Positions 29,455-56,095 of a DNA stretch of 64,000 bases are shown piece by piece. The stretch is from Komarekiella atlantica HA4396-MV6 (GTDB taxonomy: Bacteria > Cyanobacteriota > Cyanobacteriia > Cyanobacteriales > Nostocaceae). Within the stretch, counting starts at the first letter, position 1. Every line of letters starts with the position of its first letter. The notes beneath the pieces are model-generated. The model was not told where the DNA came from. It saw only the letters and a program-made list of their open reading frames with translations, and searched no databases. The position numbers were made by a program, and so were the translations under genes. The DNA lies in NCBI GenBank assembly GCA_019359395.1, contig JAHHHK010000010.1, positions 111,894 to 175,893 of the forward strand. Direction: 5' to 3'.

Positions 29455-29469
29455 TAAACTGAAAATATC

Positions 29470-33581: not shown

Positions 33582-33758
33582 TAAACTATTATCCTCTTTA
33601 AAGTGCTAAGGTATATTTAATAATCAATGTCTTGATTGAAATGACTATATAAATGCAAGTTGACTATTTTCTGTAAGATATAATTAAATTAATAATGTAT
33701 TTGAATAAAAAATAAAGTTTATACTTGATATCTCAATCAAGGAATTATTATATAATTT

Positions 33759-34892: not shown

Positions 34893-34902
34893 AGGGATTT
34901 TT

Positions 34903-35733: not shown

Positions 35734-35831
35734 TTATCAAATCTTTCGTAAAAGGTAAAAAAGGCAAGCGATTAGCTAGTAGCAGGTCGTAAATGAAATA
35801 TGCAAAGAAAATTTGTAAACTTAAAGTCTGT

Positions 35832-36626: not shown

Positions 36627-36714
36627 TTTATTTACCTCTACAATCATTGTATAAACATTATTTACATAGTTATGCTACATTCTCAAATACCATTTATTAT
36701 TTATCTGAAACTTT

Positions 36715-37914: not shown

Positions 37915-37952
37915 ATTGGCTAAGGTTATAATAACCTCTAACAATTATCAGC

Positions 37953-39083: not shown

Positions 39084-39144
39084 TTAAACGGTTTAATTTT
39101 CTGATATTTTTTAAAAAGTAACAATTGGACTTGATAAATCAAAA

Positions 39145-39957
39145 TTACTCACAACGAGAGAATAAAACAACCATACTTGTATGGAGTTTTCTTTGCAAAG
39201 CTAAAGGAGTTTTATTAGTAAAGATTTCTAAATTATTAATCCATTTCTTAGGTAGTAAGTTAAGTAGAGTCCCTAACTTTAAATAGCCGTTTGTCAGCGT
39301 ATTACTAAAAAGTCGAGTTTCTAAAATAGATAAATTGGTTTGCTGAGCTAGGGATTTAACTTCGTCTAGATGCAATAAAAAAATGTGACCATCTGAGTTA
39401 GGTTGGAATTGTATTGCTTCAAACTGACTGGGATCAGAGCATTCAGAAAACTTAGGCAAATTATTCTGAAAATATTCACCATTAGGTGTACTCATAACAA
39501 TGTATCCACCAGGTTTAACCATCTTGGCAATATTCTTTAAAAACTCATCAGGATGGGCAACGTGTTCAATAATTTCAGCAATTAGTATAATATCAAATTC
39601 TGAGTTAAAACCAAGTGTAAATACATCTCCCGCTACGTAATTAATATTCCCATATTCCCATTTCAGTTTTACATAGTCTATTAACTCCTCACGCATATCA
39701 TTCCAAGTAACTTCATAGCCCATTTCTGCCAGAGATAAACTAAAGTTTCCTTGAGCAGCAGCTACGTCTAAGACTTTTGCCCCTGGCTTGGCAACTGTTT
39801 TTATTAAGTCCAATATGTGTTTGCGACGATAAGCATAGGCATAGGCATATCCAAGATATTTAGGAAAATTTGTGTCTTCATATATTTCTAACAGATCGTA
39901 TTGATAGCTATATTGCCAACTTTCAGGCCAAGTTGATTCTGGTGTAATTTTTTTCAT
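39145..39957 (-). CDS. Class I SAM-dependent methyltransferase (UbiG-like)
   Basis: KVLDVAAAQG, FDIILIAEIIEHVAHP, VKPGGYIVMSTPN. Confidence 0.88.
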   Translation of the reverse strand: MKKITPESTWPESWQYSYQYDLLEIYEDTNFPKYLGYAYAYAYRRKHILDLIKTVAKPGAKVLDVAAAQGNFSLSLAEMGYEVTWNDMREELIDYVKLKWEYGNINYVAGDVFTLGFNSEFDIILIAEIIEHVAHPDEFLKNIAKMVKPGGYIVMSTPNGEYFQNNLPKFSECSDPSQFEAIQFQPNSDGHIFLLHLDEVKSLAQQTNLSILETRLFSNTLTNGYLKLGTLLNLLPKKWINNLEIFTNKTPLALQRKLHTSMVVLFSRCE

Positions 39958-40007
39958 GACTGAATATATAAAAAATTATTTTTTTTAATTTATAGAAAAT
40001 GTTTATT

Positions 40008-40868
40008 TCAAACTTTATTTTTTAAATGAAATCTAAAATATAACTTAAAAGCCATATATAAAAATGAGATATGCTCTAAAAAAGCTTCTTTAAAACCAGG
40101 GTAACTAAATTTTAATAATCCTGGAATTGTAGTTTTAATAAACCCACGTAAAGTATAACTAAGGTAAGTTTTATAGTTGATTTTAGCTAATTCTTCTGGA
40201 TGAATGGATAAGTAAATTAGTGTTGATTCTTGATGCTGTCTCAGCTTTTTCCAGCCTCCACTATGTCTCCACGGATGACATACAGAAGCAGATTGAATAA
40301 AGAAAAACCTGTTTCCCATTTTCATGAGTCTTAACCTCAGCTCTACATCTTCCATAGCAGCGTAGGGAAATCGCTCGTCAAAACCTCCTAAAGACTCGAA
40401 AAGTTGGCTTTGAATAGCAAAGTTGCATGACCACAAAAATCCTCCTGACTCATTAATAGGGGATGTTTCATCTAAAGTTTTTCTGGGACGATCAACATAA
40501 GTTCTACCCTCAAAGACTAAAGCAGAGGGTTGAGTAATTTTAGCTTGAGCATAACCTTCTAACCATTGAGGGTCAGGTAAGCAATCATCATCTGTGAAAG
40601 CCAGCCATTCACCTTGAGCATATTTAGCTCCATTGTTACGATTTGCCGCTGGGCCCTTGCGTGGGCCAGCTACCCACTTTACCCAGGGGTAGCGTTCTTG
40701 AATCATCTCCTCGGCAGTCGTTTGAGAGCTATCATCTGTCACAATTACCTCGTATTGCTCATCTGCTAAAGTCTGAATTCCAGGCACTAGGCAATCCAAA
40801 CATTTTGCTAGCAAATCATTACGATTATAAGTTGGAATAATAACTGTAAATAAAGGACTAGATTTCAT
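40008..40868 (-). CDS. GT2 glycosyltransferase
   Basis: VIIPTYNR, GPAANRN, LAFTDDDC, GGFDERF...EDVEL. Confidence 0.92.
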   Translation of the reverse strand: MKSSPLFTVIIPTYNRNDLLAKCLDCLVPGIQTLADEQYEVIVTDDSSQTTAEEMIQERYPWVKWVAGPRKGPAANRNNGAKYAQGEWLAFTDDDCLPDPQWLEGYAQAKITQPSALVFEGRTYVDRPRKTLDETSPINESGGFLWSCNFAIQSQLFESLGGFDERFPYAAMEDVELRLRLMKMGNRFFFIQSASVCHPWRHSGGWKKLRQHQESTLIYLSIHPEELAKINYKTYLSYTLRGFIKTTIPGLLKFSYPGFKEAFLEHISFLYMAFKLYFRFHLKNKV

Positions 40869-41740
40869 TGTTGTACAACAGTTTGAAAGGCGCGTTTAAA
40901 TCGACGACCTATTGCTCTTACGGATCGATTATTTCTTTGATAGGACAAACTCCACTGTCTAACCTGTTCATCCCATTCAGCTTTTTCTGCTTGGGTCAAA
41001 AAGTTATAGAAAATTTGATGAATTGGTCGAGGTACATCCATACGTATACCTGCCCAGTGAATTAAATAGGGTCGGCGTGATGGTTCACTCCAGTAATGTT
41101 CAAATTCATCTGGATAGTCTCCCGCCCATGTTGATTCCATGCTCAAAGGAGGTAATGTTAAGTTTGTCACTTGCACTCCAGATGCAAATACAAGCAAGTT
41201 AAGACCGGGTTGTTCGTGAAAACGATCTCGAATACAGGTATTTACAAAGTCCGATCGCATCGCTGTGTACTTCAGTTGTTCAATTTCAAAAATTGTGCGA
41301 TCGCAAGCAAATTGCCCGGTGTTAAATATATTCTTCTGCCAAATAGTACTTTTTTTTGCAATTATTTCTCTTGATTCTTGTGTTATTGTCTGTTCTGGAT
41401 TATGCCAATGTCCACAAGAAGTAATAAAGCCAGAATAAGGCTCTAATATCTCTTCTGGATTCTTTAAAAAACATACATCCGCATCTACAAACTGATAATT
41501 TGCTACTGTTAAACACTGATATTTTCGCATTACCGAATGAGATTTTTCACTCTTTAACCAACTCGTAATTTCAGGTACTTCCCACCAGGTAGATCCATTT
41601 GGCAGATCGAAAAGCTTGTCATCATACGGAATTACCAAAAGGGGAAGTTGGCAACCTGTTGCACGTAAGGAACGCTCCATTGCGAGAAAGCGTAGTCTTA
41701 CCTTATTATTAGCCAGAGTAATAATTTTCTCAATTTTCAT
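40865..41740 (-). CDS. Putative GT-A fold transferase (GT8-like, atypical)
   Basis: FVDADV (DxD), FNTGQF, EQPGLN, YLIHWAG, which parallel the GT8 motifs DxD / FNxG / DQ / HxxG. Confidence 0.55.
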   Translation of the reverse strand: MKIEKIITLANNKVRLRFLAMERSLRATGCQLPLLVIPYDDKLFDLPNGSTWWEVPEITSWLKSEKSHSVMRKYQCLTVANYQFVDADVCFLKNPEEILEPYSGFITSCGHWHNPEQTITQESREIIAKKSTIWQKNIFNTGQFACDRTIFEIEQLKYTAMRSDFVNTCIRDRFHEQPGLNLLVFASGVQVTNLTLPPLSMESTWAGDYPDEFEHYWSEPSRRPYLIHWAGIRMDVPRPIHQIFYNFLTQAEKAEWDEQVRQWSLSYQRNNRSVRAIGRRFKRAFQTVVQQ

Positions 41741-41858
41741 AATAGTCTATATATCAACCAAACTAACTGTGTTTAAATTATCAGTTTTTTATATTATGTG
41801 AAAAATTGTAAGTTTTTGGGCGTCAATCCAAAATTGATATTACTGCTTAGTATTAAGC

Positions 41859-43505
41859 TCAAAATAATAAGTTTTTCATCCGAGAGTAAAACCACTCAGG
41901 TAGCAGTAAGGTAAACCATTTAAACGAGTCAAAGCGACTAAAACCGTATTTTGTTATCAGCTTTATTAAGTTGTGCAAACGGTAATTGAATGGCATCTTC
42001 CTCATACGGCTTTGAATTATCCTGTCAAGATCAATGTCTTCTTGGCAAAAAATACGGGTTAATAGGGTGTCCGGCTCATTGCTAGACATCTGATCCGTTG
42101 TAGGTATCATAGATACACGAGGCAGAGTGACAGCACGGAAGTATATATCTTCTAAGGAGTGTTGCCAGTTTATGCCCATGTGTATCTCTGTTATGTCTGT
42201 TCTGGTTGCTTCACCAACAGATAGCCTGAATTCCAGATCTTCAATTAAATTAGATAAGATTGCTGTGTACTCTTCAAGATCCCGTGCATAGATAAGATTG
42301 GTAGTCAGACCTGGGGAATCTGCACCAATTATGCTGCACACATCGGAAAATGGATAGCGGCTTACCAGAGGCATACCATAGCTTCCAGCCTCTAACAAAG
42401 ATGTATTCGAGACAAAGGGAAATGTGTCAACATAGATATCAGCAGCCTGATAAAAAATGCTGGTATCTTGAGACTCTTCCAGTAGTCTGATTCTTCCTTG
42501 TGTTTGCTCAATGGCTACTGACCAATTTTCATCGTTATTGCCTGCACCAATGGCAATCAGAATGACTTGTTTGTATTTTTGCAACACAGGAAGATGTACA
42601 TCAGCATAACTGGTTCCATATATTGTTTTGAACTTAAGCGCTCTAGCGATGGAAAGCACTACAATGCTGTCTTCATCAAGACCAAGCTGCTGTTTTGCAT
42701 TTGTGCGAGAAAGGGTTCTTTGAATAGGATTTAAAATAATAGGAAGTAGTAAGTTACGTTCTACTGCAATACCTCTACGCTCTTGTGAGAGACGCTTACC
42801 AGATTCACGAAGATTAGCCACAACATCACTAATACTATATCCTAGCCAAAAGCATTGATCGGCTTGATTTACGTAGATAATCGGTGGAGATTGCTCCCTG
42901 TTAGCAAAGGCAATAATAGGAATAACATCTTCTTGGTGTGTATGTAGCACAACCACGTCTGCTAATGTGGCAATTTCTCGGAGTCGTTTTGCCCAAGAAA
43001 TAATGCTGCCAATGCTTTCACTTAATGAATATATCTTGCCTTGACTATTATTTACAGCTTCTTTAAGAAAACTGGGCACATTTTCTAGTTCCTGTCGAGT
43101 GATAGCAATGGAGTGTATCCGCTCACTATCCTGCTGAATCCAACGATAAAGCATTTTGGCATGTCCACCAATGGGTGGAAGATGGGTAGCGACATGCAGT
43201 ACTCTCTTTGGTGTTCCAGCTAATGAAGCAGTTGAATTGAGAGAATATAGGCTGTTTGGTATCACCTTTCGTCCAATTGTAAGCAGAAGTTGCTCTAGTT
43301 CTGGGCTAACAAAAAGACCGCAATGTTGAAAAGTCGCGTATAAAGCGGCAATTTCTGCATATACGGCTGCTGCACTGTAATCATTGCGTTGTACTAAATC
43401 TTTTGTTTGTGAAACAAGACTGCGGAACACATCGAAACGTTTTTGAATTAGGTGGTAGCCTTCTTTATGCAAAGTTTGGAGTGTATGGTTAGCTATTTTC
43501 TGCAT
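41859..43505 (-). CDS. Putative GT-B glycosyltransferase with helical N-terminal extension
   Basis: VLHVATHLPPIGGHAKM, ADIYVDTFPF...SLLEAGSYGMP. Confidence 0.65.
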   Translation of the reverse strand: MQKIANHTLQTLHKEGYHLIQKRFDVFRSLVSQTKDLVQRNDYSAAAVYAEIAALYATFQHCGLFVSPELEQLLLTIGRKVIPNSLYSLNSTASLAGTPKRVLHVATHLPPIGGHAKMLYRWIQQDSERIHSIAITRQELENVPSFLKEAVNNSQGKIYSLSESIGSIISWAKRLREIATLADVVVLHTHQEDVIPIIAFANREQSPPIIYVNQADQCFWLGYSISDVVANLRESGKRLSQERRGIAVERNLLLPIILNPIQRTLSRTNAKQQLGLDEDSIVVLSIARALKFKTIYGTSYADVHLPVLQKYKQVILIAIGAGNNDENWSVAIEQTQGRIRLLEESQDTSIFYQAADIYVDTFPFVSNTSLLEAGSYGMPLVSRYPFSDVCSIIGADSPGLTTNLIYARDLEEYTAILSNLIEDLEFRLSVGEATRTDITEIHMGINWQHSLEDIYFRAVTLPRVSMIPTTDQMSSNEPDTLLTRIFCQEDIDLDRIIQSRMRKMPFNYRLHNLIKLITKYGFSRFDSFKWFTLLLPEWFYSRMKNLLF

Positions 43506-43909: not shown

Positions 43910-44902
43910 TTAGAGAGAGAACGCAAACTTTTCCGCGACAAAGCTCTTAACTAGACCCATTTTGCCAGTTTTCACGTCCACGGTAAACAAGGCATTGTTT
44001 TTGCCATTCTTGTCAGCAGCAAGCGCATACAATTGCCCAGAGGCAGAGAAGCCCAAGTCTTTAACATCGTTGAACAGAGGGCGTCCTTCAACGGTCAGTG
44101 GGGCCAGTCTCTTGATTTTGACTTTGCCGGTAACTATGGCTTTGTCCTGCAAGTTCATCGTGATTAAAATGGGGACATTTTCTGAGCCAATCTCAGTTGC
44201 GAAAATATTTCCCTTCTGATCTTGGCATAGGTTAGCGAATCGATGAGTGAGTGGTAGTGGAGGTAGGGCCAGTTCATCTTTAGAAATAATTTTACCTGTT
44301 CTGTAATCGAGTGTTTTGAAAGCAAAAGGTGGGATGCCTTCATTTCCAACCAAGCACAGAATTTGATTATTGGGAAGGCTGACCAAACTTTCAACAGTCT
44401 GATTAGATTTCTCTAAGCCGAGAATTTTTTTTGCTCTGAATTGACGGTTAGTAGCACCACCGATAGCAGATATGAGATGACTGAAATAACCATTTCTTGT
44501 ACTAGAGACAGTAGAAATTACAACAGTTTTATCTCCAAGCACTATCGCTTTCGTAACTCGATCAGAGTCAGGTAAGAAAAAAGCCCGAGGTTTTTTCGGT
44601 ACAGGTGACAGATTCTCAACAGATAGAACTGGCAAATTCACCTTAGAAAGAACCTTCAGATCTAGCAGCTCAGCAGAAATAACTTTTCCTACCGTCAGAT
44701 CAGCAGTGTTTAATTCCACTGGCGGAGTTTGGTCTTCCCGGTTTCGACTATTAGATGTCTTAAGGAGATTTATTCCATAAAGAACCTCTTTGCTCGGCTC
44801 ACTCTTCTGAGCAAGCGCCTTACTAGAGAGGTCGGCAACAACAGTGGTAGTGAAACTGGCTGCTACTAACTTGGCAAATTGTCGGCGTTGCAGTGGTGTC
44901 AT
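43910..44902 (-). CDS. Tat-exported hypothetical protein (possible beta-propeller)
   Basis: LQRRQFAKL twin-arginine motif, h-region, ALA|Q cleavage; repeated beta-rich segments (LGFSASGQLYAL...LFTVDVKTG); AAGGAG SD. Confidence 0.7.
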   Translation of the reverse strand: MTPLQRRQFAKLVAASFTTTVVADLSSKALAQKSEPSKEVLYGINLLKTSNSRNREDQTPPVELNTADLTVGKVISAELLDLKVLSKVNLPVLSVENLSPVPKKPRAFFLPDSDRVTKAIVLGDKTVVISTVSSTRNGYFSHLISAIGGATNRQFRAKKILGLEKSNQTVESLVSLPNNQILCLVGNEGIPPFAFKTLDYRTGKIISKDELALPPLPLTHRFANLCQDQKGNIFATEIGSENVPILITMNLQDKAIVTGKVKIKRLAPLTVEGRPLFNDVKDLGFSASGQLYALAADKNGKNNALFTVDVKTGKMGLVKSFVAEKFAFSL

Positions 44903-44925
44903 TCTTTTACTCCTTGTGGGATGCT

Positions 44926-47900
44926 TTAGGGAACAATCAGGTTTGCATTTGGTGCCTGGGGTCTAGCTCCCATGTCTGCTAAGATGTTGACAGTTATTTG
45001 CTTGACGCGAAGATCTTCCCGCGCTGGGCTAACATCGGCACTGTCTAAACCCCATGCCCACTGAATCGTGCCAGAGGCAAAGACTTTAGCCCCACTACTA
45101 GCGGTGTAGCGAGTTGAGTGGGCTTTGGTAAAATCCTGGTTAGCAGGGAGGGCTTGTTCTCCAGGCGGTTCGTCAAAGTTTGGCAATAAGGCAGCAGGCT
45201 GGACTGGTGACTGGGACAACATGACGAGGTTGGGAGGAGTTGACCCATTATTAACAATAAAATCCCATTCATAACCCACTAACAGAGCCAGCTGATCCCC
45301 ATTCTGAAGTCCCGTATTCGCATAGTAAGGATCGCTGCTGTTGGTGACAACAAAATTAAAACCACCGTAGAGATCCAGGTCGCTACCGTACATGACTCCT
45401 AACAAAGCGTTTTCCGGCCTTTGGTTCTGAACGCTGCGGAATTTATTAGTAGCTGCTGATGGCCCTTGCTGCTGGGCGACTGGATCTGATGCCCAATCTT
45501 GTTTGTAGCATGCCATCACCCGGTTGGGCTTCACTTGCCCAGCAGCGAGAGTGGAATTTTCAAACCTTACTCGCCAATAGCAAGTATTGGCAGAGAAAAA
45601 TCCCAAATTAATTCCGCCATTACGAGCAGCCTCAACGGCATCGTACATTTCCTTAGACCAATACTCATCGTGACCCACAGACAAGAATACTTTGTGATCG
45701 AGTAAACTTTGTCCGTTGGTGTGAACCTGCATGTTGTCGGTGTAGGTAACATCGTAACCTTGAGATTCCAGCCAGCGCACCATATTGTATTCCCATCGCA
45801 GGGGTGTGTCGGCCTCGTAGGACTCTTGAGAAGTTGCCTGGGATATGGGCCGGTCATAGGAAACCTTGAAAGCTCTTGGACCGTTGCTGTTAAAGTTGTA
45901 CAAGCTGTGACCTCCGACCGTGTTATAAGCCAGAACACAAGAAACGGCGCTCTGGAACAAGATATCGGCAGTGCTGCTATCATCACGGACGACAAACCAC
46001 ACGTGCGCTACTTTGCCACTCGCTTGATCAGTGAGCTTTGCTATATAAATACCACTAGTCCAGTTATTGCCTACCTGTAAGACGTAGGATGTTGTCCAGT
46101 TACACTCGACCAAGCGGGTATCAGGGTCTAAGGTAGCGGCGGATTGGGTTGTGCCATTGAGTGAGCCGCTGCTCGCCATCAGCCTGCCGCCCGTGCCACT
46201 ATAGTAGCCCAAGCGATATACGTCAATGGTAAACTGTCCAGCTTGTCCAAGAGAAACCTTGATGTCTAGCGATTCCCCTTTATTGACACTGGTTGCTGAG
46301 GCGTAGCCAGCAATCTCACCACTACCACGGTTAACAAGTTTCCAGTTAGTTGTACCGGGATTGAGGTTTTCCAAATAGATTGGATTGGGGTTCGCCGGAG
46401 TTGCTGAAGCAGAGAAGGTGACATTGCCGATGCCATCTGCTGTCGCGGTTACTACTACCCCTCCGGGTGCGGTAGGAACTGGCCCTAGGGTCAAGGTAGT
46501 ACTTGCTTGACCGCTACCATTAGTTACTACACTGACGGGTGAGACTGACCCCCCACCACTGCTAACGACAAAGTTCACCGTTACCCCTGACTGAGGATTA
46601 TTTTGGGCGTTTACAACTCGCACTACTAAGGGATTGGGCAGCGCTGATCCCGTTGTGCCAATCTGATTGTCTCCACTAACTTTAACCAAGCTACTGCCGA
46701 CGACAAAGGCGATATCGCGATAATAGTTAGTATTCCGGTAAGAACCAGTTGGGAAAGAATTGGGGTTTAAATTATATACCCCATTGTTGCCGTCTGCGAC
46801 TGAGCTAAGATCCCCCTGGACGATGGAACTGCCTAGTTCATCTTGGGTTGCCACATAATGGCTATTTGCGTTGACAGAGACTACATAAGTTGTATTAGAT
46901 AAGATGTTTACTGGCGTTTCTAGAAGCTGTTCTTGCCAACCAGAAGCAGTTTCGTTAGTAAAAGTGACACTTTCTAATAGGGTTCCCGTTGCCGTCCAAA
47001 GCTTACCGATATGAGTTCCTGTCTCGCTAGCGGCTTTCCAGAAGCGAATGGCGGTAATTTGTCCCCCTCTAGTACTGCGGAATTTCATGCCTAATTCATA
47101 GGAAACATTATCAGTGAAATTTGCAAGGCTCGGTACTTGAGTCGTCAAAACTGTTTGTGCGTTTCCTGATGGATTAGCTGTGGCTGAGAAAGTAACGCTA
47201 CCTATTCCGCTTGCCGTGGCACTTACATTATTAGTTACAGGACTTGTTGCACCAGGACTAGCTCCTAGCGTTAAGGTAGTACTAGCCTGACCGCTAGCAT
47301 TAGTTACTGCACTAGCGGGCGAGACTGACCCCCCGCCACTGGTAACGGCAAAGTTTACCGTGACCCCAGATTGGGGATTACCAGTACTGTCTTTGACCTG
47401 AACAACCAAGGGGTTAGGTAAGGTAGTTGCGACTGCACCAGTCTGATTGTCGCCGCTAACTTTAGTAATAGTCGGCAGGGCAACAGCAACAAAGTTGATG
47501 TCACGAAAATAGTTAGTATTGCGGTAAGAACCGGTTGGGAAAGCTCCAGGTGTTCCATTAAACACCCCATTATTACCGTCTGCCACTGAGCTAAGATCGC
47601 TATTAACTATGGGGTTGCCCAGTTGATCGTAAGTGGCGACATAATAAGCATTTACGTTAACGGAGACTACATAGGTCGTATTAGCTTGAATGTTAACTGG
47701 TGTTGCTAGAAGCTGCTCCTGCCAGCCGGAAGCTGTTTCATTAGAGAAGGTAACGCTTGCTAATAGGGTTCCCGTTGCCGTCCAAAGCTTGCCAGTATGA
47801 GTTCCTGTCTCGCTAGGAGCTTTCCAAAAGCGAATGGCGGTAATCTGTCCCCCAGTAGCGCTGCGGAATTTCATGCCTAATTCGTAGGGAACGCTATCGG

Positions 47901-47946
47901 TGAAATTTGCAATGCTCGGCGCTTGATTGGTAAAGAGGATAGTCAT
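44926..47946 (-). CDS. (DUF4082 + Ig-like) x2 fused to an N,N-dimethylformamidase beta-subunit-like domain
   Basis: Two ELGMKFRS...GQITAIRFWK...GWQEQ...YYRDI domains; two KVSGDNQ...PLVV...GQAST Ig-like domains; C-terminal IYRLGYYSG, SGIYIAKL, AYN...GGHSLY, VSYDRP, GHDEYWS, GYEWD, ASGTIQW. Confidence 0.8.
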   Translation of the reverse strand: MTILFTNQAPSIANFTDSVPYELGMKFRSATGGQITAIRFWKAPSETGTHTGKLWTATGTLLASVTFSNETASGWQEQLLATPVNIQANTTYVVSVNVNAYYVATYDQLGNPIVNSDLSSVADGNNGVFNGTPGAFPTGSYRNTNYFRDINFVAVALPTITKVSGDNQTGAVATTLPNPLVVQVKDSTGNPQSGVTVNFAVTSGGGSVSPASAVTNASGQASTTLTLGASPGATSPVTNNVSATASGIGSVTFSATANPSGNAQTVLTTQVPSLANFTDNVSYELGMKFRSTRGGQITAIRFWKAASETGTHIGKLWTATGTLLESVTFTNETASGWQEQLLETPVNILSNTTYVVSVNANSHYVATQDELGSSIVQGDLSSVADGNNGVYNLNPNSFPTGSYRNTNYYRDIAFVVGSSLVKVSGDNQIGTTGSALPNPLVVRVVNAQNNPQSGVTVNFVVSSGGGSVSPVSVVTNGSGQASTTLTLGPVPTAPGGVVVTATADGIGNVTFSASATPANPNPIYLENLNPGTTNWKLVNRGSGEIAGYASATSVNKGESLDIKVSLGQAGQFTIDVYRLGYYSGTGGRLMASSGSLNGTTQSAATLDPDTRLVECNWTTSYVLQVGNNWTSGIYIAKLTDQASGKVAHVWFVVRDDSSTADILFQSAVSCVLAYNTVGGHSLYNFNSNGPRAFKVSYDRPISQATSQESYEADTPLRWEYNMVRWLESQGYDVTYTDNMQVHTNGQSLLDHKVFLSVGHDEYWSKEMYDAVEAARNGGINLGFFSANTCYWRVRFENSTLAAGQVKPNRVMACYKQDWASDPVAQQQGPSAATNKFRSVQNQRPENALLGVMYGSDLDLYGGFNFVVTNSSDPYYANTGLQNGDQLALLVGYEWDFIVNNGSTPPNLVMLSQSPVQPAALLPNFDEPPGEQALPANQDFTKAHSTRYTASSGAKVFASGTIQWAWGLDSADVSPAREDLRVKQITVNILADMGARPQAPNANLIVP

Positions 47947-48092
47947 AAGCTATTGCCTATAAAATTTAATTACTACGGATCATAAAAAGTCACTTCCTTG
48001 ATTAGGAACACTGAGCAGCCTTGGAGTAAGCTGCTCGACGAATACTTGATGAACTTGACTAAAAGCAATTTCTACGAAAGGAATTATTTTCT

Positions 48093-49289
48093 TTAAACCT
48101 GACAAGCCATTTTTAAAACTTTTACTACATAGTCCTGTTCGTGTTGAGTCATCTGATGAAACAAGGGTAGTAAGATAGTACGATCTTGGGCTTGCTCACT
48201 TTCAGAAAGGCGATCGCAAGTTGCTTGTCCACACTGGCATTCTCTGCTCCCGCACAACCAAGCTTCAATTTGATAAGCAGGTTCTCGGTGAGCGCACATA
48301 ATTCCTCGTCTTGTGGCAACCCCAGCATCTAACATCACTTGCATGACTTGCCGTTGGTCGCATTTTTCTGGTAGGCGTACACAGTAACTTTGCCAGTTAC
48401 TTTTTACCCAATCTGGCTCTGTCGGCAATTTTAAGCCTGGTATATCCGCCAGCATTTGCTGATATTGCTGTGCCAAGTAACGTCGGCGTTCAGTAATTTC
48501 CGGTAGGCGTTTGAGTTGTTCCCGTCCAACTGCTGCTTGGATGTCGGTCATCCGGTAGTTGTAGCCCAACATCGGGTAAGACTCAAAGATGACTTGTTTT
48601 GCCCCGTGACGTACGGTGTCGGGAACACTCATTCCATGTTGTCGCCAGAGGCGAAACTGTTTGTCCCATTCGGGGTTGTTGGTAGTAAGCATTCCACCAT
48701 CACCAGTGGTAATCACTTTGCGGGGATGAAAGGAAAAACAAGCAATATCCCCGTGTGGCTTGCCGATTTTTTCCCACTCATTATTCCAGAGAATTTCACT
48801 GCCGATCGCACAAGCTGCATCTTCAATTACTGGTAGATTATATTGATGGGCAACATCTAAAATGGCTTTGAGGTCGCAAGGCATCCCCATTTGATGAACA
48901 ACGAGAATAGCGCGGGTGCGTTCGCTAATCACATCTGCAATTAACAAAGGGTTGATGTTATATGTTTGAGGTTCAATATCCACAAACACAGGTATCGCCC
49001 CACAGTAACGGATACTGTTGGCGGTAGCAATATAAGAATGGCTAACAGTAATTACTTCATCCCCAGGTTGCACACCTACGGTTAACAGCGCTAAGTGTAA
49101 TGCTGTGGTGCAATTGGAAACAGCGCAAGCATAGTTTGCTCCTACATAAGCCGCAAATTCCTGCTCAAAAGCAGCGACTTCTGGCCCTTGTGTAACCCAG
49201 CCTGACATAATCGCCCGGCTAGCTGCTTCAGCTTCGGGTTCACCCATGCACGGTTTGGCGATCGGGACATAATGGATTTTCTCAGACAT
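48093..49289 (-). CDS. DegT/DnrJ/EryC1/StrS aminotransferase (ArnB/PerA-like)
   Basis: SGWVTQGP, VSNCTTALHLAL, IEDAACA, SFHPRKVITTGDGG (PLP Lys), GYNYRMTDIQAA. Confidence 0.93.
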   Translation of the reverse strand: MSEKIHYVPIAKPCMGEPEAEAASRAIMSGWVTQGPEVAAFEQEFAAYVGANYACAVSNCTTALHLALLTVGVQPGDEVITVSHSYIATANSIRYCGAIPVFVDIEPQTYNINPLLIADVISERTRAILVVHQMGMPCDLKAILDVAHQYNLPVIEDAACAIGSEILWNNEWEKIGKPHGDIACFSFHPRKVITTGDGGMLTTNNPEWDKQFRLWRQHGMSVPDTVRHGAKQVIFESYPMLGYNYRMTDIQAAVGREQLKRLPEITERRRYLAQQYQQMLADIPGLKLPTEPDWVKSNWQSYCVRLPEKCDQRQVMQVMLDAGVATRRGIMCAHREPAYQIEAWLCGSRECQCGQATCDRLSESEQAQDRTILLPLFHQMTQHEQDYVVKVLKMACQV

Positions 49290-50256
49290 TGCTTGCTTCC
49301 TTTGTCAGCTTTTGTTCGCGCCACCAATTAACCAACCGACGCAATCCTTCTTCTAACGACACCTGTGCTTCAAAACCCAGCAGTTTCTTAGCTTTACTGA
49401 CATCAGCAAGTCGCCGTGGCACAGCGTTGACTTTGCGCTCTGGCCCGTATTCTGGTTGCAAGTCTGATTCCATCACCTTAGCCAAACTATAGGCTAAGTC
49501 ATTCAAACTGGTTTCGACGCTACTAGCAATATTAAAAACCTCATCAGTGACATCTGTTTTGGCTGCCAAGATATTGGCTCTAGCAATGTCTTCGATGTAT
49601 ACAAAGTCCATTGTCTGTTTACCATCACCAAAAATCAAGGGTGGTTGTCCAGCGACGATGCGCTCCATCCAACGAATTAACACCTCAGTGTAGACACCGT
49701 AAATATCCATACGTGGGCCGTAAACATTGAAGTAGCGCAACCCTACATAGTTCAGCCCATACATATCATAAAAACTACGTAATAAGCCTTCATTAAAAAT
49801 CTTGGCTGCACCGTAGATTGTACGGTTATTGTAAGGGTGGTGAGCTTCAGTTGTGGGGAACTCCTCCGCCATACCATATATTGATGCTGATGAAGCAGCA
49901 ACTACCTTTTTTACCTCAGCTTTTACTGCTGCTTCTAAAACATTGAAAGTACCATCAGCCAAAACTTCCAATGCCATACGCGGTTCTTCAGCACATTGAG
50001 TAATCCGAATTGCTGCTTGATGAAAGACTATATCCACACCTTGCATGACTTCTCCAAGAAGTTTTTGATCCCGGATATCGCCTTCTACAACTACTAAAGG
50101 GCCGTGTTCTTTTGCCCAAGCGAGGTTTTTCAGTTGTCCACGAGTGAAGTTGTCAAGAATGATAATCTCAGAAACTTCTTCCTTGACTAATAAATCGGCA
50201 ATATGGGAGCCAACTAAGCCTGCACCACCTGTGATTAAAATTCGTTTATTTTGCAT
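49282..50256 (-). CDS. NAD-dependent nucleotide-sugar epimerase/dehydratase (extended SDR)
   Basis: TGGAGLVG, ASSASIYG, YGAAK, RYFNVYGP. Confidence 0.92.
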   Translation of the reverse strand: MQNKRILITGGAGLVGSHIADLLVKEEVSEIIILDNFTRGQLKNLAWAKEHGPLVVVEGDIRDQKLLGEVMQGVDIVFHQAAIRITQCAEEPRMALEVLADGTFNVLEAAVKAEVKKVVAASSASIYGMAEEFPTTEAHHPYNNRTIYGAAKIFNEGLLRSFYDMYGLNYVGLRYFNVYGPRMDIYGVYTEVLIRWMERIVAGQPPLIFGDGKQTMDFVYIEDIARANILAAKTDVTDEVFNIASSVETSLNDLAYSLAKVMESDLQPEYGPERKVNAVPRRLADVSKAKKLLGFEAQVSLEEGLRRLVNWWREQKLTKEASNV

Positions 50257-50261
50257 ATTTA

Positions 50262-50957
50262 TTAAGTGTTATTTGATGGTTCATATCCTTCTCGCCAGCG
50301 TAAAAACTTAGCGGGTACACCAGCTGCGATCGCAAATGCTGGTACATCTTTAGTGACAACAGCTCCAGCGCCAACAATGCTTCCTTGACCAATTGTTACC
50401 CCAGGAAGGATAACTGCGTTCATGCCGATATCAGCTCCGGTTTCAATTTTTACTGATTTAATCTCTAGGTCTGTTTGGATGATTGGAACGTCAATTGGCA
50501 ATCCGGTATGTGTTGAACCCAGTACTTTTGCTCCCGGGCCCCATCCTACATAATCTTCAATAATTAAATTACGGGCATCAAAGTAGCTCTGCGGCCCAAT
50601 CCAAACGTTGTTACCTATAATACAAGTACCGTCGAACCTTCCTTGAATATAGCTTTGGGAACCAATAAATACTTGATTCCCAATCTCAAATGTTTCAAGA
50701 TGTTTAAAACCTACACTATTGCCAATCCGAACTCCATGACCGAATTTACGTGCTACTGCACGCCAAATAACTCGTCGCATCAGCGCATCAAATTCTCCAT
50801 CACTGACGGCAAAGCGTGCATACAATTCGATTAATGGTTGCAGTTCATACTGAGTATTGAGATATGCTGCTAGTTGAATTTCAAAGTCGGGGTCTGACTT
50901 TAATTCCTTTAAGCCGTGGACAGCTTTGATGATCTTAGTCATAGCTGGATCAGACAT
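50262..50957 (-). CDS. Hexapeptide-repeat acyltransferase
   Basis: LbH repeats; GSTH; DIGMNAVILPGVTIG; AGVPAKFLRWR. Confidence 0.88.
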   Translation of the reverse strand: MSDPAMTKIIKAVHGLKELKSDPDFEIQLAAYLNTQYELQPLIELYARFAVSDGEFDALMRRVIWRAVARKFGHGVRIGNSVGFKHLETFEIGNQVFIGSQSYIQGRFDGTCIIGNNVWIGPQSYFDARNLIIEDYVGWGPGAKVLGSTHTGLPIDVPIIQTDLEIKSVKIETGADIGMNAVILPGVTIGQGSIVGAGAVVTKDVPAFAIAAGVPAKFLRWREGYEPSNNT

Positions 50958-50972
50958 TAATTTTCTCAGCTA

Positions 50973-52091
50973 TCATAATGAGGTAATTACTGCCTTTGCG
51001 ACTTTATTTTGTGCTTCTGTTGTCAGTTCCGCATACATTGGTAAAGATAACACTTCTCTAGATGCTGCTTCTGAGTGCGGAAAGTCTCCGATTTGATAAC
51101 CTAAATCAGCATAAGCTGGCTGGAGGTGGACAGGAATTGGGTAATGAATACCTGTCTGAATTTCTTGCTCTTGTAGGCTCTGTTGCAGGGCATCTCGTTG
51201 TGGCGTTCGCGTAGCGTGCCCTACGAGCACTCGCACTGCATAAACATGGTAAACGTGGCGGCTATAAGGCATTATCCTAGGTAAAGTTAGGCTAGATTCT
51301 GCCAGGAGTTGATCGTAATTAGCTGCATGTGTGATTCTTGCTTCTGTCCACGCTTCAATGTAGCGCAATTTCACCCGTAAAATCGCTCCCTGGATGCCAT
51401 CCATGCGATAGTTATAGCCTTTTAGAACATGATGATATCTGCGTTCTTGACCCCAGTCGCGTAACATCTGCATAGTACGGGCATATTCAGGATTGTTGGT
51501 AACTGCCATCCCGCCCTCACCGTAGGCTCCTAAGTTCTTACCTGGATAAAAACTAAAACAACCAATGTCGCCAATACTACCTACTCGCTGTCCTTTGTAC
51601 TCAGCCCCATGAGCTTGGGCTGCATCTTCAATCACAGTTAAACCATGACGGCGAGCAATTTCTAGAATAGGTTCCATGTCTGCTGGTTGACCATACAAAT
51701 GTACAGGCAGAATGGCTTTTGTGCGATCAGTTATGGCTTGTTCAATTTGGTTGATATCTATTGTGTAAGAAACAGGGTCAATATCTACAAAAACAGGTGT
51801 AGCTCCGGTATAAACAATTGCTGCTACCGTAGCAACGAAGGTAAAAGGGACAGTAATCACTTCGTCACCAGCACCGATACCAGCAGCTAGTAACGCCAAG
51901 TGGAGGGCGCTAGTACCTGTATTCACAGCTATGCCATAATCAGCATTGCAGTAATCTGCAAACTCTTCTTCTAAAGATTTAACTTCATTCCCTAAGACAA
52001 ATTGAGTACTTGCCAATAATTGCAAAACGGCACTATCAATTTCATCTTTGATACTCAAGTACTGAGTTTTGAGGTCTACAAATGGAATCAC
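50973..52091 (-). CDS. DegT-family aminotransferase (WbpE/WlbC/GnnB-like)
   Basis: [45 protein letters not shown]; carries an 8-aa in-frame insertion (see findings). Confidence 0.93.
51207..51234. repeat. 24-nt SDR-type insertion inside the DegT gene, in frame
   Basis: TCGC-GTAGCGTGCCCTACGAGCAC-TCGC with a 4-nt duplication; gives [15 protein letters not shown]. Confidence 0.7.
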
Positions 52092-53125
52092 GCCGCTACC
52101 TCTGCTATATTTAGTTCAATTAATCGACCTTGCTTCTTCAAAGACTGGCTTGCAGCTTCTAGAATTCTCACTACATCCAGTCCTACTTTCCCATCGGTAA
52201 TCGGGCGATCGCTTTGTTGAATACAATTAATAAAATGCAATCCCTCTGTCCGCAGTGCTTCTGTCATATCTAACTTGGGCGACCACATATCCCCTGTACG
52301 ATAACCAATCATCATCTGGTAAACACTTTCAGAATTGCCATTAATAGTAATTCCCTTGTCGTAAATCTTGACTTTTTCGCTAGGTTCTAAGTCGTCATAA
52401 ACAATCATGCGTTGACTACCACCAATCAGTGTGCGACGAACTTTTACCGGTGCTAGCCAATTGACATGAAGATGAGCAATCAAGTTATTTTCAAAGAATA
52501 AGGTCAAATAAGCAATATTTTCTGGTTCTCCAGGTATATGGCTGATGCCTGTAGCGGATACAGCATAAGGCTGAGATGGCAATACATAGTTCATGATTGC
52601 GAGGTCATGAACTGCCAAATCCCAGATGACATTCACATCATGCTGAAAAAGTCCTAAGTTGACCCGTACAGAATCGTAGTAGTAAACATTCCCTAAAGTA
52701 TTAGTGGCGATCAAGTCGTGCATTTTACGTACAGCACCCGTATAGACAAAGGTATGATCGACCATTAATACTAGGTTACGTTTTTCTGCCTCTTCAATTA
52801 AGCGCATTGCCTGTTCTGAGGTGGTGGTCATGGGTTTTTCTACGAGCACGTGCTTGCCAGCCTGCAACGCAGCTAAGGCCAAGTCAAAGTGAGTAGAAAC
52901 AGGTGTAGCGATCGCTACCGCATCAATCTTCGGATCTTTAAAAACGTCTCGACAATCTGTCGTCACACTAATTTTGGGATATCTTGCTTGCACCTTGGTG
53001 AGCAACTCTGGTTTAAAATCGCTGACTGTTGTAACCTGCGCTCCTGGAATTTCCGAGAAATTTCTGACTAAATTCGGGCCCCAGTAACCATAGCCGATTA
53101 CACCGATATTAATATTACTTTCCAT
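52088..53125 (-). CDS. Gfo/Idh/MocA oxidoreductase (WbpB/WlbA/GnnA-like C3 dehydrogenase)
   Basis: [27 protein letters not shown]. Confidence 0.9.
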
Positions 53126-53379
53126 TGGTTTTAATTAATCAGAATTTATTTTTTATGAACTACTAAGCGGTGCTATTAAACAATAGCGATGGTTTTTTAA
53201 TTTAATAATATTAGGCTTTAACCTGACGAAATTTTAGTTTTTACCAAGCTTTAATTTAGTCAGTTTAGAAGTTGAAATGACCTAAAAATCTTAAATTCTT
53301 TGTTATTTACTGAGGTTCCTAACGTTGACAGACAGGAAAGTAGCTTTCGTGGTTTAACTTAGACTGGTAGTTGGTATTT

Positions 53380-53889
53380 CTAAGATTGAACTGCGAGTTC
53401 CTTCATTGTTCCATCGCGGACATCGCCAATCACACGAGCCGGCACTCCCACAGCAATCGCATAATCAGGGATATCACGAGTAACTACTGCTCCAGCCCCA
53501 ATAATGGCTTTTTCTCCAACAGTCACCCCTGGCAAGACGGTAGCATTGCTACCAATAGAAGCACAGCGTTTAACTTGCGTCTTAAGTACATACCAGTCGG
53601 CATCGGTTTTCAAACTACCATCTTCATTAGCGGCATGGGGGTAAAGATCATTGGTAAACATCACTCCATGACCGATAAAAACTTCATCTTCAAGGATGAC
53701 GCCTTCACAAAGAAAGCTGTGTGATGAAATCTTACACCGACTACCGACAATGACATTTTTTTGGATTTCCACAAAAGTACCAATCTTTGTCTCATCACCA
53801 ATTTCACAGCCGTAAAGATTCACTAAATTAGGATGGAAAATCTTGACGTTACTGCCTATTTTTACATCATCATTTACTGGCATAATCAA
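53380..53889 (-). CDS. Hexapeptide N-acyltransferase (WbpD/WlbB-like)
   Basis: [51 protein letters not shown]. Confidence 0.9.
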
Positions 53890-53968: not shown

Positions 53969-55249
53969 TTATTCAATTGTTTTCCAGATCGCATCTTCTA
54001 AGTAAGTACACTCATCAGCTTGCCAAGGATAATCTAGTCTCTCAAGTTGGTGCATACTAACTTCAAACTGACAAATTTCTCTAAGATTTTCTAATAGGGT
54101 TTCGCTGCTACGCTCGGCAAACCATGTTGTTAAGGTATAAGAACCCATGTAAAGTCGTAATTTAGGGATTTCACAGCGGAGAATATGAGTTCCTGCTTCT
54201 CGCTGAAACGGCACATCTTGTTCAAAAAACCAGAAAATAGCAATTGGCTGTTGCAGAGCACTGACTATTTGAAAGGAAAAACGCAGACTTTCATGAGGTT
54301 TTTCGATATGAAAAGCGAACTCAAAGGTAATTGGTTTTCCCCAACAGTGAATACCTTGCCCCTCTGAGGTATCTACTTTTGCCCAAGCTACGTAGTTGCC
54401 AGTTTTGTTAGTGGGTGCTTGATAATACGCAGATTCTACTGCATTATCTTTATGCCCAGCTAGATATAACTGTACAGCTTTGCTGGTATTGCCATCAAAC
54501 TGAATTTGACCTTTGGAAAGTAGGATACAACGTTTTGTGAGTTGGGCGATCGCCTGCATACTATGACTAACGAATAAGACTGTGCGTCCTTCTTTGGTTG
54601 CTACATCCCCCATTTTTCCCAAGCACTTCTTTTGAAAAGCAGAATCGCCCACAGCTAGAACTTCATCGATAATTAAAATCTCTGGCTCTAAATGAGCTGC
54701 TACAGAAAAAGCAAGGCGCACATACATTCCAGAAGAATAGCGTTTTACTGGTGTGTCTAAAAACTTTTCTACCTCAGCAAAAGCAACTATTTCATCAAAT
54801 TTCTTCCGAATTTCGACTCCACTCATACCTAGAACAGAACCGTTGAGGTAGATGTTCTCTCGCCCAGTTAGTTCTGGGTGAAATCCCGTACCTACTTCTA
54901 ATAGACTTGCCACTCGCCCTTTAATGGCAATGCGTCCTGTCGTTGGTTCGGTGATGCGGCTCAAAACTTTTAAAAGCGTCGATTTACCAGCACCATTACG
55001 TCCAATAACACCAATGGCTTCACCTTGTTTAATTTCAAAAGAAACATCGTTCAATGCCCAAAATTCTTCTCTACTAAAATTGGGCACTTTTTTACCAGCA
55101 GGCTTGATAAATTTTTGAGTGAGAGATTTAGCTCCATCAGCAATTACATCACGCAGAGCCTTATAGCGATAGCGACCAGAACTATCCTGCTGATGACTAA
55201 TAATATATTTTTTACCTAGGTTGTATACATTAATTACAGTATCAGACAT
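53969..55249 (-). CDS. wzt: Polysaccharide ABC transporter ATPase with C-terminal Wzt_C domain
   Basis: GRNGAGKSTLL, YSSGMYVRLAF, LIIDEVLAVGD, VSHS; about 150-aa C-terminal Ig-like extension. Confidence 0.93.
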   Translation of the reverse strand: MSDTVINVYNLGKKYIISHQQDSSGRYRYKALRDVIADGAKSLTQKFIKPAGKKVPNFSREEFWALNDVSFEIKQGEAIGVIGRNGAGKSTLLKVLSRITEPTTGRIAIKGRVASLLEVGTGFHPELTGRENIYLNGSVLGMSGVEIRKKFDEIVAFAEVEKFLDTPVKRYSSGMYVRLAFSVAAHLEPEILIIDEVLAVGDSAFQKKCLGKMGDVATKEGRTVLFVSHSMQAIAQLTKRCILLSKGQIQFDGNTSKAVQLYLAGHKDNAVESAYYQAPTNKTGNYVAWAKVDTSEGQGIHCWGKPITFEFAFHIEKPHESLRFSFQIVSALQQPIAIFWFFEQDVPFQREAGTHILRCEIPKLRLYMGSYTLTTWFAERSSETLLENLREICQFEVSMHQLERLDYPWQADECTYLEDAIWKTIE

Positions 55250-55264: not shown

Positions 55265-56095
55265 CTAAATTACGTCAGCAAACGTCCGTTCCATTTTGCG
55301 GAAATACCAAATACCACTTATCAGTAAAAAGATCACCAATCCCATAGATAAGATAAATCCCGGCCAATAAATTTTTGAATCCCCACCTATAATTGCCCAG
55401 CGAAAACCATCAATTACCCCCACCATTGGGTTCAAAGAATAAAGCAGACGCCATTTTTCTGGTACAACGCTACTACTAAAGCCTACTGGTGATATATATA
55501 GGCCAAATTGCATAATAAATGGCACAATATACCGAAAGTCTCGGTATTCCACATTTAATGCTGCTAGCCACAGCCCTACTCCCATAGAAGCAGCAAAAGC
55601 AATAATAATAAATAACGGCAGTGTTAGTATCTGCCAACTAGGCACGAAATTATACCAAATCATCAATCCTAGCAGAATCATGCCAGAAATCATAAAGTCA
55701 ACAAAGCTGACGGTTACTGCACTGATAGGTACAATTAAACGTGGAAAGTAGACTTTAGATATCAAATTGGCATTACTAATTAGACTGTTACTGCACTCAC
55801 CCAAGGCATTAGAAAAAAATTGCCAAGGTAGCATAGCAGCAAATACCAAAATTGGATATGGTGCGTCTTTTGAAGGTAATTTCGCTAAATTGCCAAACAC
55901 TACTGTGAACACCACCATCGTCAAAAATGGCCGGATAAGTGCCCAGGCTATACCAACAAATGTTTGTTTGTAACGCACCAAAATATCACGCCAAGCAAGA
56001 AAATATAATAGCTCACGATAGCGCCACAGGTCTTTCCAATACTGCTGCTCTGTACGTCCAGCTTCAATCATTAATTCCGGCTGAGAATCTGTCAT
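55265..56095 (-). CDS. wzm: Polysaccharide ABC transporter permease
   Basis: YRELLYFLAWRDILVRYKQT, KVYFPRL, YRDFRY, LNPMVGVIDGFR. Confidence 0.93.
   Translation of the reverse strand: MTDSQPELMIEAGRTEQQYWKDLWRYRELLYFLAWRDILVRYKQTFVGIAWALIRPFLTMVVFTVVFGNLAKLPSKDAPYPILVFAAMLPWQFFSNALGECSNSLISNANLISKVYFPRLIVPISAVTVSFVDFMISGMILLGLMIWYNFVPSWQILTLPLFIIIAFAASMGVGLWLAALNVEYRDFRYIVPFIMQFGLYISPVGFSSSVVPEKWRLLYSLNPMVGVIDGFRWAIIGGDSKIYWPGFILSMGLVIFLLISGIWYFRKMERTFADVI

Follow-up and report, generated by a model that had tools for sequence, protein, structure and literature searches.

A conserved two-module amination cassette in the cyanobacterium Komarekiella atlantica HA4396-MV6 and its possible product, a 2,3,4-tri-N-acylated hexose

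Introduction

What sugar would a bacterium make with two sugar aminotransferases, two acyltransferases and two oxidoreductases that are encoded in a single short run of genes? The question is raised by a 64,000-nt stretch of the genome of Komarekiella atlantica HA4396-MV6 (contig JAHHHK010000010.1, positions 111,894 to 175,893; hereafter the window, numbered from its first nucleotide), which holds six intact minus-strand open reading frames (ORFs) within 48093-53889. In their order of transcription these are:

53380-53889, minus strand: AcT1, left-handed beta-helix (LbH) acyltransferase, 169 aa; Pfam Hexapep, 4.5e-21
52088-53125, minus strand: Gfo, Gfo/Idh/MocA dehydrogenase, 345 aa; Pfam GFO_IDH_MocA (PF01408), 1.4e-29
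50973-52091, minus strand: DegT1, sugar aminotransferase dependent on pyridoxal phosphate (PLP), 372 aa; Pfam DegT_DnrJ_EryC1 (PF01041), 9.8e-130
50262-50957, minus strand: AcT2, LbH acyltransferase with an N-terminal extension of ~100 aa, 231 aa; Pfam Hexapep, 2.4e-15
49282-50256, minus strand: SDR, extended short-chain dehydrogenase/reductase, 324 aa; Pfam Epimerase (PF01370), 1.2e-53
48093-49289, minus strand: DegT2, PLP-dependent sugar aminotransferase, 398 aa; Pfam DegT_DnrJ_EryC1 (PF01041), 1e-110

A sequence-only reading of the window had named these six families in this order, and both the ORFs and their Pfam assignments agree with it. The genes are tightly packed, with overlaps of 4 nt between Gfo and DegT1 and 8 nt between SDR and DegT2 and remaining gaps of 5, 15 and 254 nt, and the six-gene arrangement is far beyond chance.

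Proposed pathway

The reading that we prefer, and in which our confidence is evenly balanced, is that the cassette works as one unit that converts a UDP-N-acetylhexosamine (UDP-HexNAc; most likely UDP-GlcNAc) to a UDP-2,3,4-tri-N-acyl-2,3,4-trideoxyhexose destined for a glycan exported by the Wzm/Wzt transporter encoded next to it. In such a pathway the Gfo/Idh/MocA enzyme would oxidise C3, DegT1 would transaminate C3 and AcT1 would N-acetylate the resulting 3-amine; the SDR would then oxidise C4 and release the 4-keto sugar, with neither 4,6-dehydration nor decarboxylation, DegT2 would transaminate C4 and AcT2 would N-acetylate the 4-amine, thereby pulling an unfavourable transamination forward, a part played by formylation in the Ara4N pathway. 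The regiochemistry of this scheme is inferred from homology; the starting sugar, the net oxidation by the SDR and the action of both modules on one sugar molecule are likewise inferred. A hexose rather than a pentose would be the expected product because we found neither a supply of uronic acid nor a decarboxylase signature.

The proposed C3 module

What supports assignment of the first three enzymes to C3? The best Protein Data Bank (PDB) matches of AcT1 are 4mzu (97.8 bits), WlbB (3mqg, 96.7 bits, 1.4e-26) and QdtC (68 bits), all of which we take to be acetyltransferases of 3-amino sugars, 4mzu being presumably a WxcM-like, bifunctional 3,4-ketoisomerase/N-acetyltransferase. We propose that AcT1 is a 3-N-acetyltransferase; it is kept in both variants of the cassette described below, that with AcT2 and that with a formyltransferase. 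DegT1 matches 7b0d (421 bits), QdtB (345 bits), DesV (332 bits) and WbpE (299 bits; 3nyu, 3.6e-88), the last three of which are, we assume, C3 aminotransferases, and with the catalytic PLP lysine present in its motif SFYPGK it is a candidate C3 aminotransferase. Gfo has the motifs EKP and D-x3-H, and its best NCBIfam match, over the full length, is the archaeal UDP-GlcNAc 3-dehydrogenase model NF040723 at 178 bits against a cut-off of 450, all NCBIfam scores in the comparison of this module being below the equivalog cut-offs. It also matches GnnA (7bvj, 3.7e-20, 75 bits), and it shares 34% identity with the Gfo encoded in a Nostoc PCC 7107 cluster of 6-dehydrogenase, Gfo, AcT and DegT genes and 22% with that of a cluster in Peptococcaceae. 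We propose for it the role of an NAD-dependent C3 dehydrogenase of a UDP-HexNAc.

The trio of a Gfo-type C3 dehydrogenase, a DegT aminotransferase and an LbH N-acetyltransferase is shared with the WbpB/WbpE/WbpD (WlbA/WlbC/WlbB), GnnA/GnnB and archaeal 3-dehydrogenase routes. The sequence-only reading had placed it in the first of these, which starts from a uronic acid, and the window does hold a WbpE-type aminotransferase and a WbpD/WlbB-type 3-N-acetyltransferase; the rest of that assignment is not supported, as no chain named WbpB or WlbA occurs among the 44 PDB matches of Gfo at E<=1e-10, the best matches being instead the UDP-GlcNAc 3-dehydrogenase model and GnnA, and there is no 6-dehydrogenase of the WbpA type. 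The absence of the latter from the window had been recorded correctly, and it extends to the whole genome: in an assembly that is 99.9% complete we found no UDP-GlcNAc 6-dehydrogenase of the WbpA/WbpO/WecC type. The genome search for wbpA/wbpO that had been suggested returned one PF03721 gene (contig C56), which is Ugd/TuaD-like (535 bits) and lies beside a UXS-like SDR gene. When the WecC/TviB-like dehydrogenase that occupies the WbpA position in Nostoc PCC 7107 was used as a query, the only match in the genome was this same Ugd/TuaD-like gene, at 25% identity. Because the genome lacks WbpA and because of the models that Gfo matches, the substrate of the module is most likely UDP-GlcNAc and not UDP-GlcNAcA, the uronic acid assumed previously.

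The genome also encodes two paralogs of DegT1 (47% and 44% identity) and one of Gfo (31%), at C48:429922-430995, C62:226078-227139 and C23:73507-74580. They are not linked to one another and may be part of a lipid A route like that of GnnA/GnnB.

The proposed C4 module

For DegT2 the matches shift to other enzymes, perosamine synthase (209 bits), ArnB (204 bits; 1mdo, 3.9e-59) and 8vr3 (201 bits), and the catalytic PLP lysine lies in the motif SFHPRK; we propose that DegT2 is a C4 aminotransferase. AcT2, the putative 4-N-acetyltransferase, has no close characterised relative, its PDB matches being weak (maltose O-acetyltransferase, 56 bits; WlbB, 54 bits; 8vr6, 38 bits).

The acyltransferase encoded beside SDR and DegT2 is drawn from three families in different genomes: AcT2, a formyltransferase and a TIGR03570 acetyltransferase of the PglD/VioB type. 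In variant cyanobacterial cassettes the AcT2 slot is filled by p351, a protein of 335-350 aa, together with a formyltransferase whose stop codon overlaps the start of the SDR gene. This formyltransferase is closest overall to Met-tRNA formyltransferase and, among sugar enzymes, to the formyltransferase domain of ArnA (93 bits; NCBIfam, 128 bits), which works on a C4 amine. In Actinomycetota a TIGR03570 acetyltransferase (189.7 bits against a cut-off of 160.8) follows DegT2 directly in ~30 loci, and PglD/VioB-type acetyltransferases also act at C4 amines.

Wherever the formyltransferase variant occurs, the protein p351 (Calothrix sp. 336/3, L012:7891-8946; homologues in loci L033, L035-L037, L040, L065 and L084) is encoded with it. 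No sequence match for p351 turned up in Pfam or the PDB, and the folds to which its AlphaFold model (pLDDT 85.6) bears a loose resemblance (TM 0.5-0.6) are those of two-domain NAD(P) dehydrogenases, namely dipicolinate synthase A, D-2-hydroxyacid dehydrogenases and SAH hydrolase. A separate peculiarity is a four-cysteine insert, W-x-CG...C-x-C...C-x-RL, near the C-terminus of DegT2 (residues ~345-359), which is kept in the cyanobacterial, Chloroflexia and deltaproteobacterial orthologues that we examined and absent from the actinobacterial ones; it may form a small metal-binding knuckle.

The SDR has the extended-SDR fold and the Ser/Tyr/Lys triad, with the motifs GGAGLVGS, SSASIYG and YGAAK. 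We searched it for the residues that follow the catalytic Ser/Thr in other classes, and neither the acid/base pair of the 4,6-dehydratases (Asp-Glu, Ser-Glu or Asp-Lys) nor the Ser/Thr-Ser-Glu signature of the decarboxylases is present. Its score in PF02719 is weak (64 bits), with no Asp/Glu or Asp/Lys pair, and its NCBIfam scores were 162 bits for the top match, LegB (cut-off 475), 150 for GalE and 54.6 for the ArnA model PRK08125. The sequence-only reading had compared the SDR to that of the Ara4N pathway; an ArnA-like enzyme is not what we found, given SSASIYG where paralogs in the same genome have STSEVYG or STDEVYG. Loss of CO2 would not be expected of an SDR that is unlike ArnA and has 4-epimerases as its nearest structures.

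The subfamily to which the SDR belongs also has motifs of its own. Across 81 sequences AAIRITQCA, HPYNN before the catalytic tyrosine, GPRMD with a four-residue insert, QTMDF and V-x-R-R-LAD are invariant, whereas SDR paralogs in the same genome have QTRDF (or QTREF/QTRSF) in place of QTMDF and PGD in place of V-x-R-R-LAD. Residues specific to the subfamily are C88, H140/N143/N144, M216 and R281/R282. As QTRDF-type and PGD motifs are presumably the canonical nucleotide-binding ones, this hints that the subfamily may hold its nucleotide differently. The sister clade has QAYDF or QTYDF at the QTMDF position. We had also considered the invariant Arg282 as a carboxylate binder and dropped the idea, because the paralog alignment puts this residue at the position of PGD, which we take to be nucleotide-binding. 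We propose that the SDR is a C4 dehydrogenase, non-dehydrating and non-decarboxylating, that would feed DegT2.

Distribution and gene order

Orthologues of the SDR (76-93% identity) are patchily distributed in cyanobacteria: they occur in 13 further genomes of the 301 sampled and, within the family of K. atlantica, in 8 of 35. Orthologues of Gfo are found in the same genomes, and the order AcT1-Gfo-DegT1-X-SDR-DegT2, in which X is AcT2 or p351 plus the formyltransferase, is intact in 12 of the 13 loci. A wider scan with one genome per species recovered SDR orthologues (63-94% identity) from Cyanobacteriota itself and from roughly eight further phyla, the holders including Actinomycetota, Chloroflexota, Nitrospirota, Acidobacteriota, Myxococcota, Alphaproteobacteria and Verrucomicrobiota. 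What we observe is gene content, catalytic motifs and a pattern of conservation with modular variation; the cassette is a real and conserved unit that moves horizontally.

Gene order was counted over 80 loci from the wider scan, 77 of which have room downstream of the SDR gene. A DegT2-like gene lies directly downstream of it in 66 of the 77 (gap -6 to 317 nt) and within 9 kb in ~75, and the count is 65 of the 80 both for Gfo and for a DegT1-like gene. The genes that might supply a keto sugar by other means are scarce, with an NDP-sugar 6-dehydrogenase in one locus and a 4,6-dehydratase in three; with these so rarely present, no enzyme but the SDR recurs as a source for a second keto group. 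In locus L074, for example, the SDR and DegT2 genes are accompanied by a DMFA2-like gene and a UDP-GlcNAc 2-epimerase gene, with no Gfo, no dehydratase and no other dehydrogenase. In Actinomycetota the modules are interleaved in the order Gfo-SDR-DegT2-AcT-DegT1, often with a DMFA2-like gene downstream, and in nine actinobacterial loci one phosphoglycosyltransferase (Bac_transf) is encoded upstream of the cassette, an arrangement that fits the synthesis of one sugar.

Some loci have additions. In two Nitrospira metagenome-assembled genomes (L045 and L053, ~9980-13000) SDR and DegT2 are separated by genes for a Gmd-like dehydratase, another SDR and an additional DegT, and this insert looks like a perosamine-type module nested in the cassette.

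Replacement of the SDR in Calothrix

A natural swap is seen in the locus of Calothrix sp. PCC 6303 (L113). The block from the upstream GT4 gene to the partner gene of the amidase-like protein is 63-87% identical to the window, and the cassette genes other than that of the SDR are 81-87% identical. The SDR slot (L113:12211-13230) is occupied by a non-orthologous SDR of 40% identity with the motif SSSEVYG, which scores 229 bits for LegB, 194 for RmlB and 167 for GalE, is named GDP-mannose 4,6-dehydratase by NCBI and matches 8vr2, an oxidoreductase/decarboxylase discussed below, more strongly (160 bits) than does the SDR of the window (127 bits). Among the cyanobacteria sampled this SSE-type SDR is a rarity (1 of 301 genomes); it forms its own clade in the tree, and in a Chloroflexota locus it likewise stands before a DegT2-like gene. 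A swap of the SDR alone, for one with a dehydratase-type glutamate, is easiest to understand if the slot makes a C4 keto sugar for DegT2.

SSE-type SDRs also occur in Desmonostoc, Dolichospermum, Leptodesmis and Chloroflexota. In Dolichospermum sp. (L116; 5886-7004, 9008-14555) AcT1, Gfo, the formyltransferase and an SSE-type SDR are encoded and no gene is called at the places of DegT1 and DegT2; this may be a decayed copy of the cassette.

Alternative readings

The sequence-only reading had suggested two amination/acylation modules and a tri-acylamino sugar. We keep this as the leading interpretation, with DegT1 and AcT1 grouping with C3 enzymes, DegT2 grouping with C4 enzymes and gene order tying the SDR to DegT2, while its own second option, two different amino sugars, survives as a rival.

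Do the modules then act on one sugar or on two? It is conceivable, although we judge it unlikely, that a single precursor pool feeds two products for the same glycan, a 2,3-diacetamido-2,3-dideoxyhexose made by Gfo, DegT1 and AcT1 and a 2,4-diacetamido-2,4-dideoxyhexose made by the SDR, DegT2 and AcT2. Several observations favour this over the single-sugar pathway. The C4 module is found in about five loci (L058, L071, L074, L087 and L106) that have neither Gfo nor DegT1 within 9 kb, from which it follows that the modules can work apart, and Gfo/DegT1-like pairs without an SDR exist as well (L115). The cluster in the window also has many glycosyltransferases. Against a division of labour stand the co-occurrence of both modules in 65 of the 80 loci, their interleaving in Actinomycetota and translational coupling in cyanobacteria, and the single phosphoglycosyltransferase or single ArnC-like GT2 beside the cassette in several loci. 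A further observation against the full six-enzyme pathway is the reduced cassette of the cyanobacterial locus L026 (L026:8690-9421), which has Gfo, the SDR, AcT1, AcT2 and a single divergent DegT and in which a WbmS-like polysaccharide deacetylase (PF22537, 2.6e-54) is encoded after the SDR in place of DegT2 and the DMFA2-like amidase.

Does the SDR oxidise its substrate on balance, or is it an ordinary C4 epimerase? In the latter event it would turn a sugar such as UDP-GlcNAc or UDP-GlcNAc3NAc into its galacto epimer, and DegT2 and AcT2 would use a 4-keto-6-deoxy sugar from a dehydratase encoded elsewhere. The evidence from the enzyme itself weighs against net oxidation: the closest matches of the SDR, in sequence as in fold, are bona fide 4-epimerases. 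Its best PDB match is the M. ruminantium UDP-GlcNAc 4-epimerase 6dnt (189 bits, 9.6e-55); 4zrm scores 1.4e-52 and WbpP 2.9e-43, T. maritima GalE, WbgU and PelX are likewise among the best-matching enzymes, and its AlphaFold model (pLDDT 88) superposes best on 4-epimerases (TM 0.84-0.88; 0.88 for 6dnt). An Asp or Glu after the catalytic Ser/Thr marks the SDR classes known to release 4-keto sugars, as in the RmlB (STDEVYG), UXS-like (STSEVYG) and Gmd-like (SSSEVFG) enzymes of the same genome, whereas SSASIYG has neither, and release of a 4-keto hexose is not known to us from any characterised GalE-like SDR. Taken alone, therefore, the SDR looks like an epimerase. In the tree its sister clade, at 46% identity, shares the SSASxYG motif; members of this sister clade, in Nostoc PCC 7107 and Pseudanabaena, lie in clusters of 6-dehydrogenase, Gfo, AcT, DegT, SDR, AsnB, Wzm and Wzt genes with no DegT after the SDR; there, C4 epimerisation of a diacetamido-uronic acid before its amidation is a plausible role. 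Finally, three Gmd-like genes, RmlB and one PglF-like gene are present elsewhere in the genome, and these dehydratases could feed DegT2.

Sequence, then, is compatible with a simple 4-epimerase, whereas gene context argues against one, and on the whole we hold this alternative to be distinctly unlikely. The adjacency of SDR and DegT2 is near-universal and dehydratase genes are rare in these loci, the Gmd-type module inserted in the two Nitrospira loci comes with its own extra DegT, and Calothrix PCC 6303 has exchanged the SDR alone, for an SDR with the glutamate of dehydratase/decarboxylase-like paralogs. Sister-clade SDR genes, too, are followed by a DegT gene in one Sericytochromatia and one Peptococcaceae locus. 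Inspection of gene contexts in the K. atlantica genome revealed no dehydratase that adjoins a DegT, either at the dehydratases or at the other three DegT genes, so that an external source of the keto sugar is neither supported nor excluded.

A third alternative takes its cue from Psychrobacter: a uronic acid, supplied via the housekeeping Ugd or an unrecognised 6-dehydrogenase, would be oxidised at C4 by the SDR with loss of CO2, to give a 2,3,4-triacylamino (or 3,4-diacylamino) pentose of the arabinose type. In its favour are the matches of all three proteins of the C4 module to the Psychrobacter set described below, the variant cassettes in which an ArnA-like formyltransferase directly upstream of the SDR reproduces the domain order of ArnA, the Ugd gene in the genome and the readiness with which beta-keto acids decarboxylate. 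We nevertheless rate it as quite improbable, given a genome without a WbpA/WbpO/WecC-type enzyme, a 6-dehydrogenase in one locus of 80, an SDR that lacks the Ser-Glu of the UXS-like paralog in its own genome, and an ArnA model score of 55 bits against 150 for GalE.

Comparison with known pathways

The closest solved analogue of the cassette is the gene set of Psychrobacter cryohalolentis K5, whose oxidoreductase/decarboxylase Pcryo_0617 (8vr2) was identified by the fold search. The SDR, DegT2 and AcT2 match 8vr2 (127 bits; TM 0.78-0.80, rank 24th in structure), 8vr3 (201 bits) and 8vr6 (38 bits), the trio likewise following a C3 module; that the aminotransferase 8vr3 (with 8vr5) and the acetyltransferase 8vr6 belong to the same pathway as 8vr2 we infer from their consecutive entry codes. 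The logic is alike as well, namely formation of a C4 keto group by an SDR on a 2,3-di-N-acetylated UDP sugar, amination by a DegT enzyme and acetylation by an LbH enzyme. The Psychrobacter pathway has a uronic acid as its substrate and a pentose as its product. It differs in that Pcryo_0617 is described as a decarboxylase, whereas the cluster in the window and the genome around it lack a WbpA-type 6-dehydrogenase and the SDR is nearer to the 4-epimerases, with no acidic residue after the catalytic serine. The Psychrobacter O-antigen contains 2,3,4-triacetamido-2,3,4-trideoxy-L-arabinose, as the sequence-only reading had rightly stated (PMC8040287), and a literature search on 8VR2 and on triamino or triacetamido sugars returned only papers on this O-antigen. 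The wps-2 cluster of Actinoplanes missouriensis, which has two DegT genes, was considered as a homologue and rejected, because its description includes neither a Gfo nor a gene of the epimerase type (PMC13390465).

Three other systems share parts of the proposed chemistry. With ArnA/ArnB (UDP-Ara4N) the cassette would share C4 oxidation by an SDR, ArnB-type transamination and an N-acylation that drives the equilibrium; in the variant cassettes the order formyltransferase-SDR-aminotransferase is that of the ArnA domains followed by ArnB, and a possible later deacylase is encoded next door, comparable to ArnD, which in the Ara4N pathway removes the acyl group and exposes the amine. The acyl enzyme of the window, however, is an LbH acetyltransferase and not a formyltransferase, and its SDR lacks both ArnA likeness and the Ser-Glu. 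With PglF/PglE/PglD (di-N-acetylbacillosamine) it would have in common a C4 keto intermediate, C4 transamination and 4-N-acetylation, and the actinobacterial cassettes use a PglD/VioB-family acetyltransferase and Bac_transf; 4,6-dehydratase chemistry is not expected of the SDR, in contrast to PglF, and the C6 hydroxyl should stay. The 4-epimerases (GalE, WbpP, WbgU, PelX and 6dnt) share the fold and the Ser-Tyr-Lys triad of the SDR, which differs from them in the invariant motifs of its subfamily and in being almost always followed by an aminotransferase.

Significance

What would be new here? The logic of oxidation, transamination and acylation is already known, while the C4-oxidising enzyme and the product of the present version are uncharacterised, so that the cassette is an extension and not a new principle. 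We suggest, tentatively and as something possible rather than probable, that SDRs of the SSASxYG subfamily are nucleotide-sugar C4 dehydrogenases of a new type, epimerase-like in build, that release a UDP-4-keto-hexose without dehydration or decarboxylation, that with the other five enzymes such an SDR yields a 2,3,4-triamino-2,3,4-trideoxyhexose, and that the cassette has spread horizontally across at least nine phyla, Streptomyces and Nostoc included. To our knowledge this sugar has not been reported from any glycan.

If the proposed pathway is correct, an SDR subfamily that is annotated everywhere as "UDP-glucose 4-epimerase" or "epimerase/dehydratase" would be the keto-forming step of a C4 amination module, and Nostocales, Streptomyces, Micromonospora, Frankia, Chloroflexota, Nitrospira and others would be predicted to have a highly N-substituted sugar in their surface glycans. 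The natural swaps, of acetyl- for formyltransferase and of SSAS- for SSE-type SDR, would make the chemistry directly testable. There would also be a substrate hypothesis for the neighbouring dimethylformamidase-like amidase, which would take off one of the N-acyl groups and so uncover a cationic amine, as ArnD does in the Ara4N pathway.

Genomic setting

The genes that flank the cassette in the window are:

55265-56095, minus strand: Wzm, ABC2_membrane, 8.7e-19; forms with Wzt an ABC-transporter pair for glycan export, directly upstream of the cassette
53969-55249, minus strand: Wzt with a C-terminal carbohydrate-binding domain, ABC_tran, 1.3e-22, and Wzt_C, 9.2e-8
44926-47946, minus strand: DMFA2_C/DUF4082/Big_1 amidase-like protein, DMFA2_C, 1.1e-110; directly downstream of the cassette
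43910-44902, minus strand: partner of the amidase-like protein, 330 aa; further downstream

Glycosyltransferase and methyltransferase genes continue downstream of the amidase-like gene to ~23.6 kb, and with Wzm/Wzt upstream and these genes downstream the cassette is part of an ABC-transporter-dependent glycan cluster. Wzm and Wzt genes adjoin the cassette in other Nostocales loci also (L014, L015, L024, L033-L035 and L113). The amidase-like protein is possibly a later N-deacylase of the amino sugar, and in 33 of the 80 loci the SDR gene has a DMFA2-like gene no more than 9 kb away. A scan for promoters and terminators between 43.5 and 58.8 kb found sites no more frequently than in shuffled sequence and is therefore uninformative on operon structure. 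Within the window there is a step in GC content, from 32-37% in the glycosyltransferase/methyltransferase part (28000-42000) to 43-48% across the amidase gene and the cassette (44000-52000).

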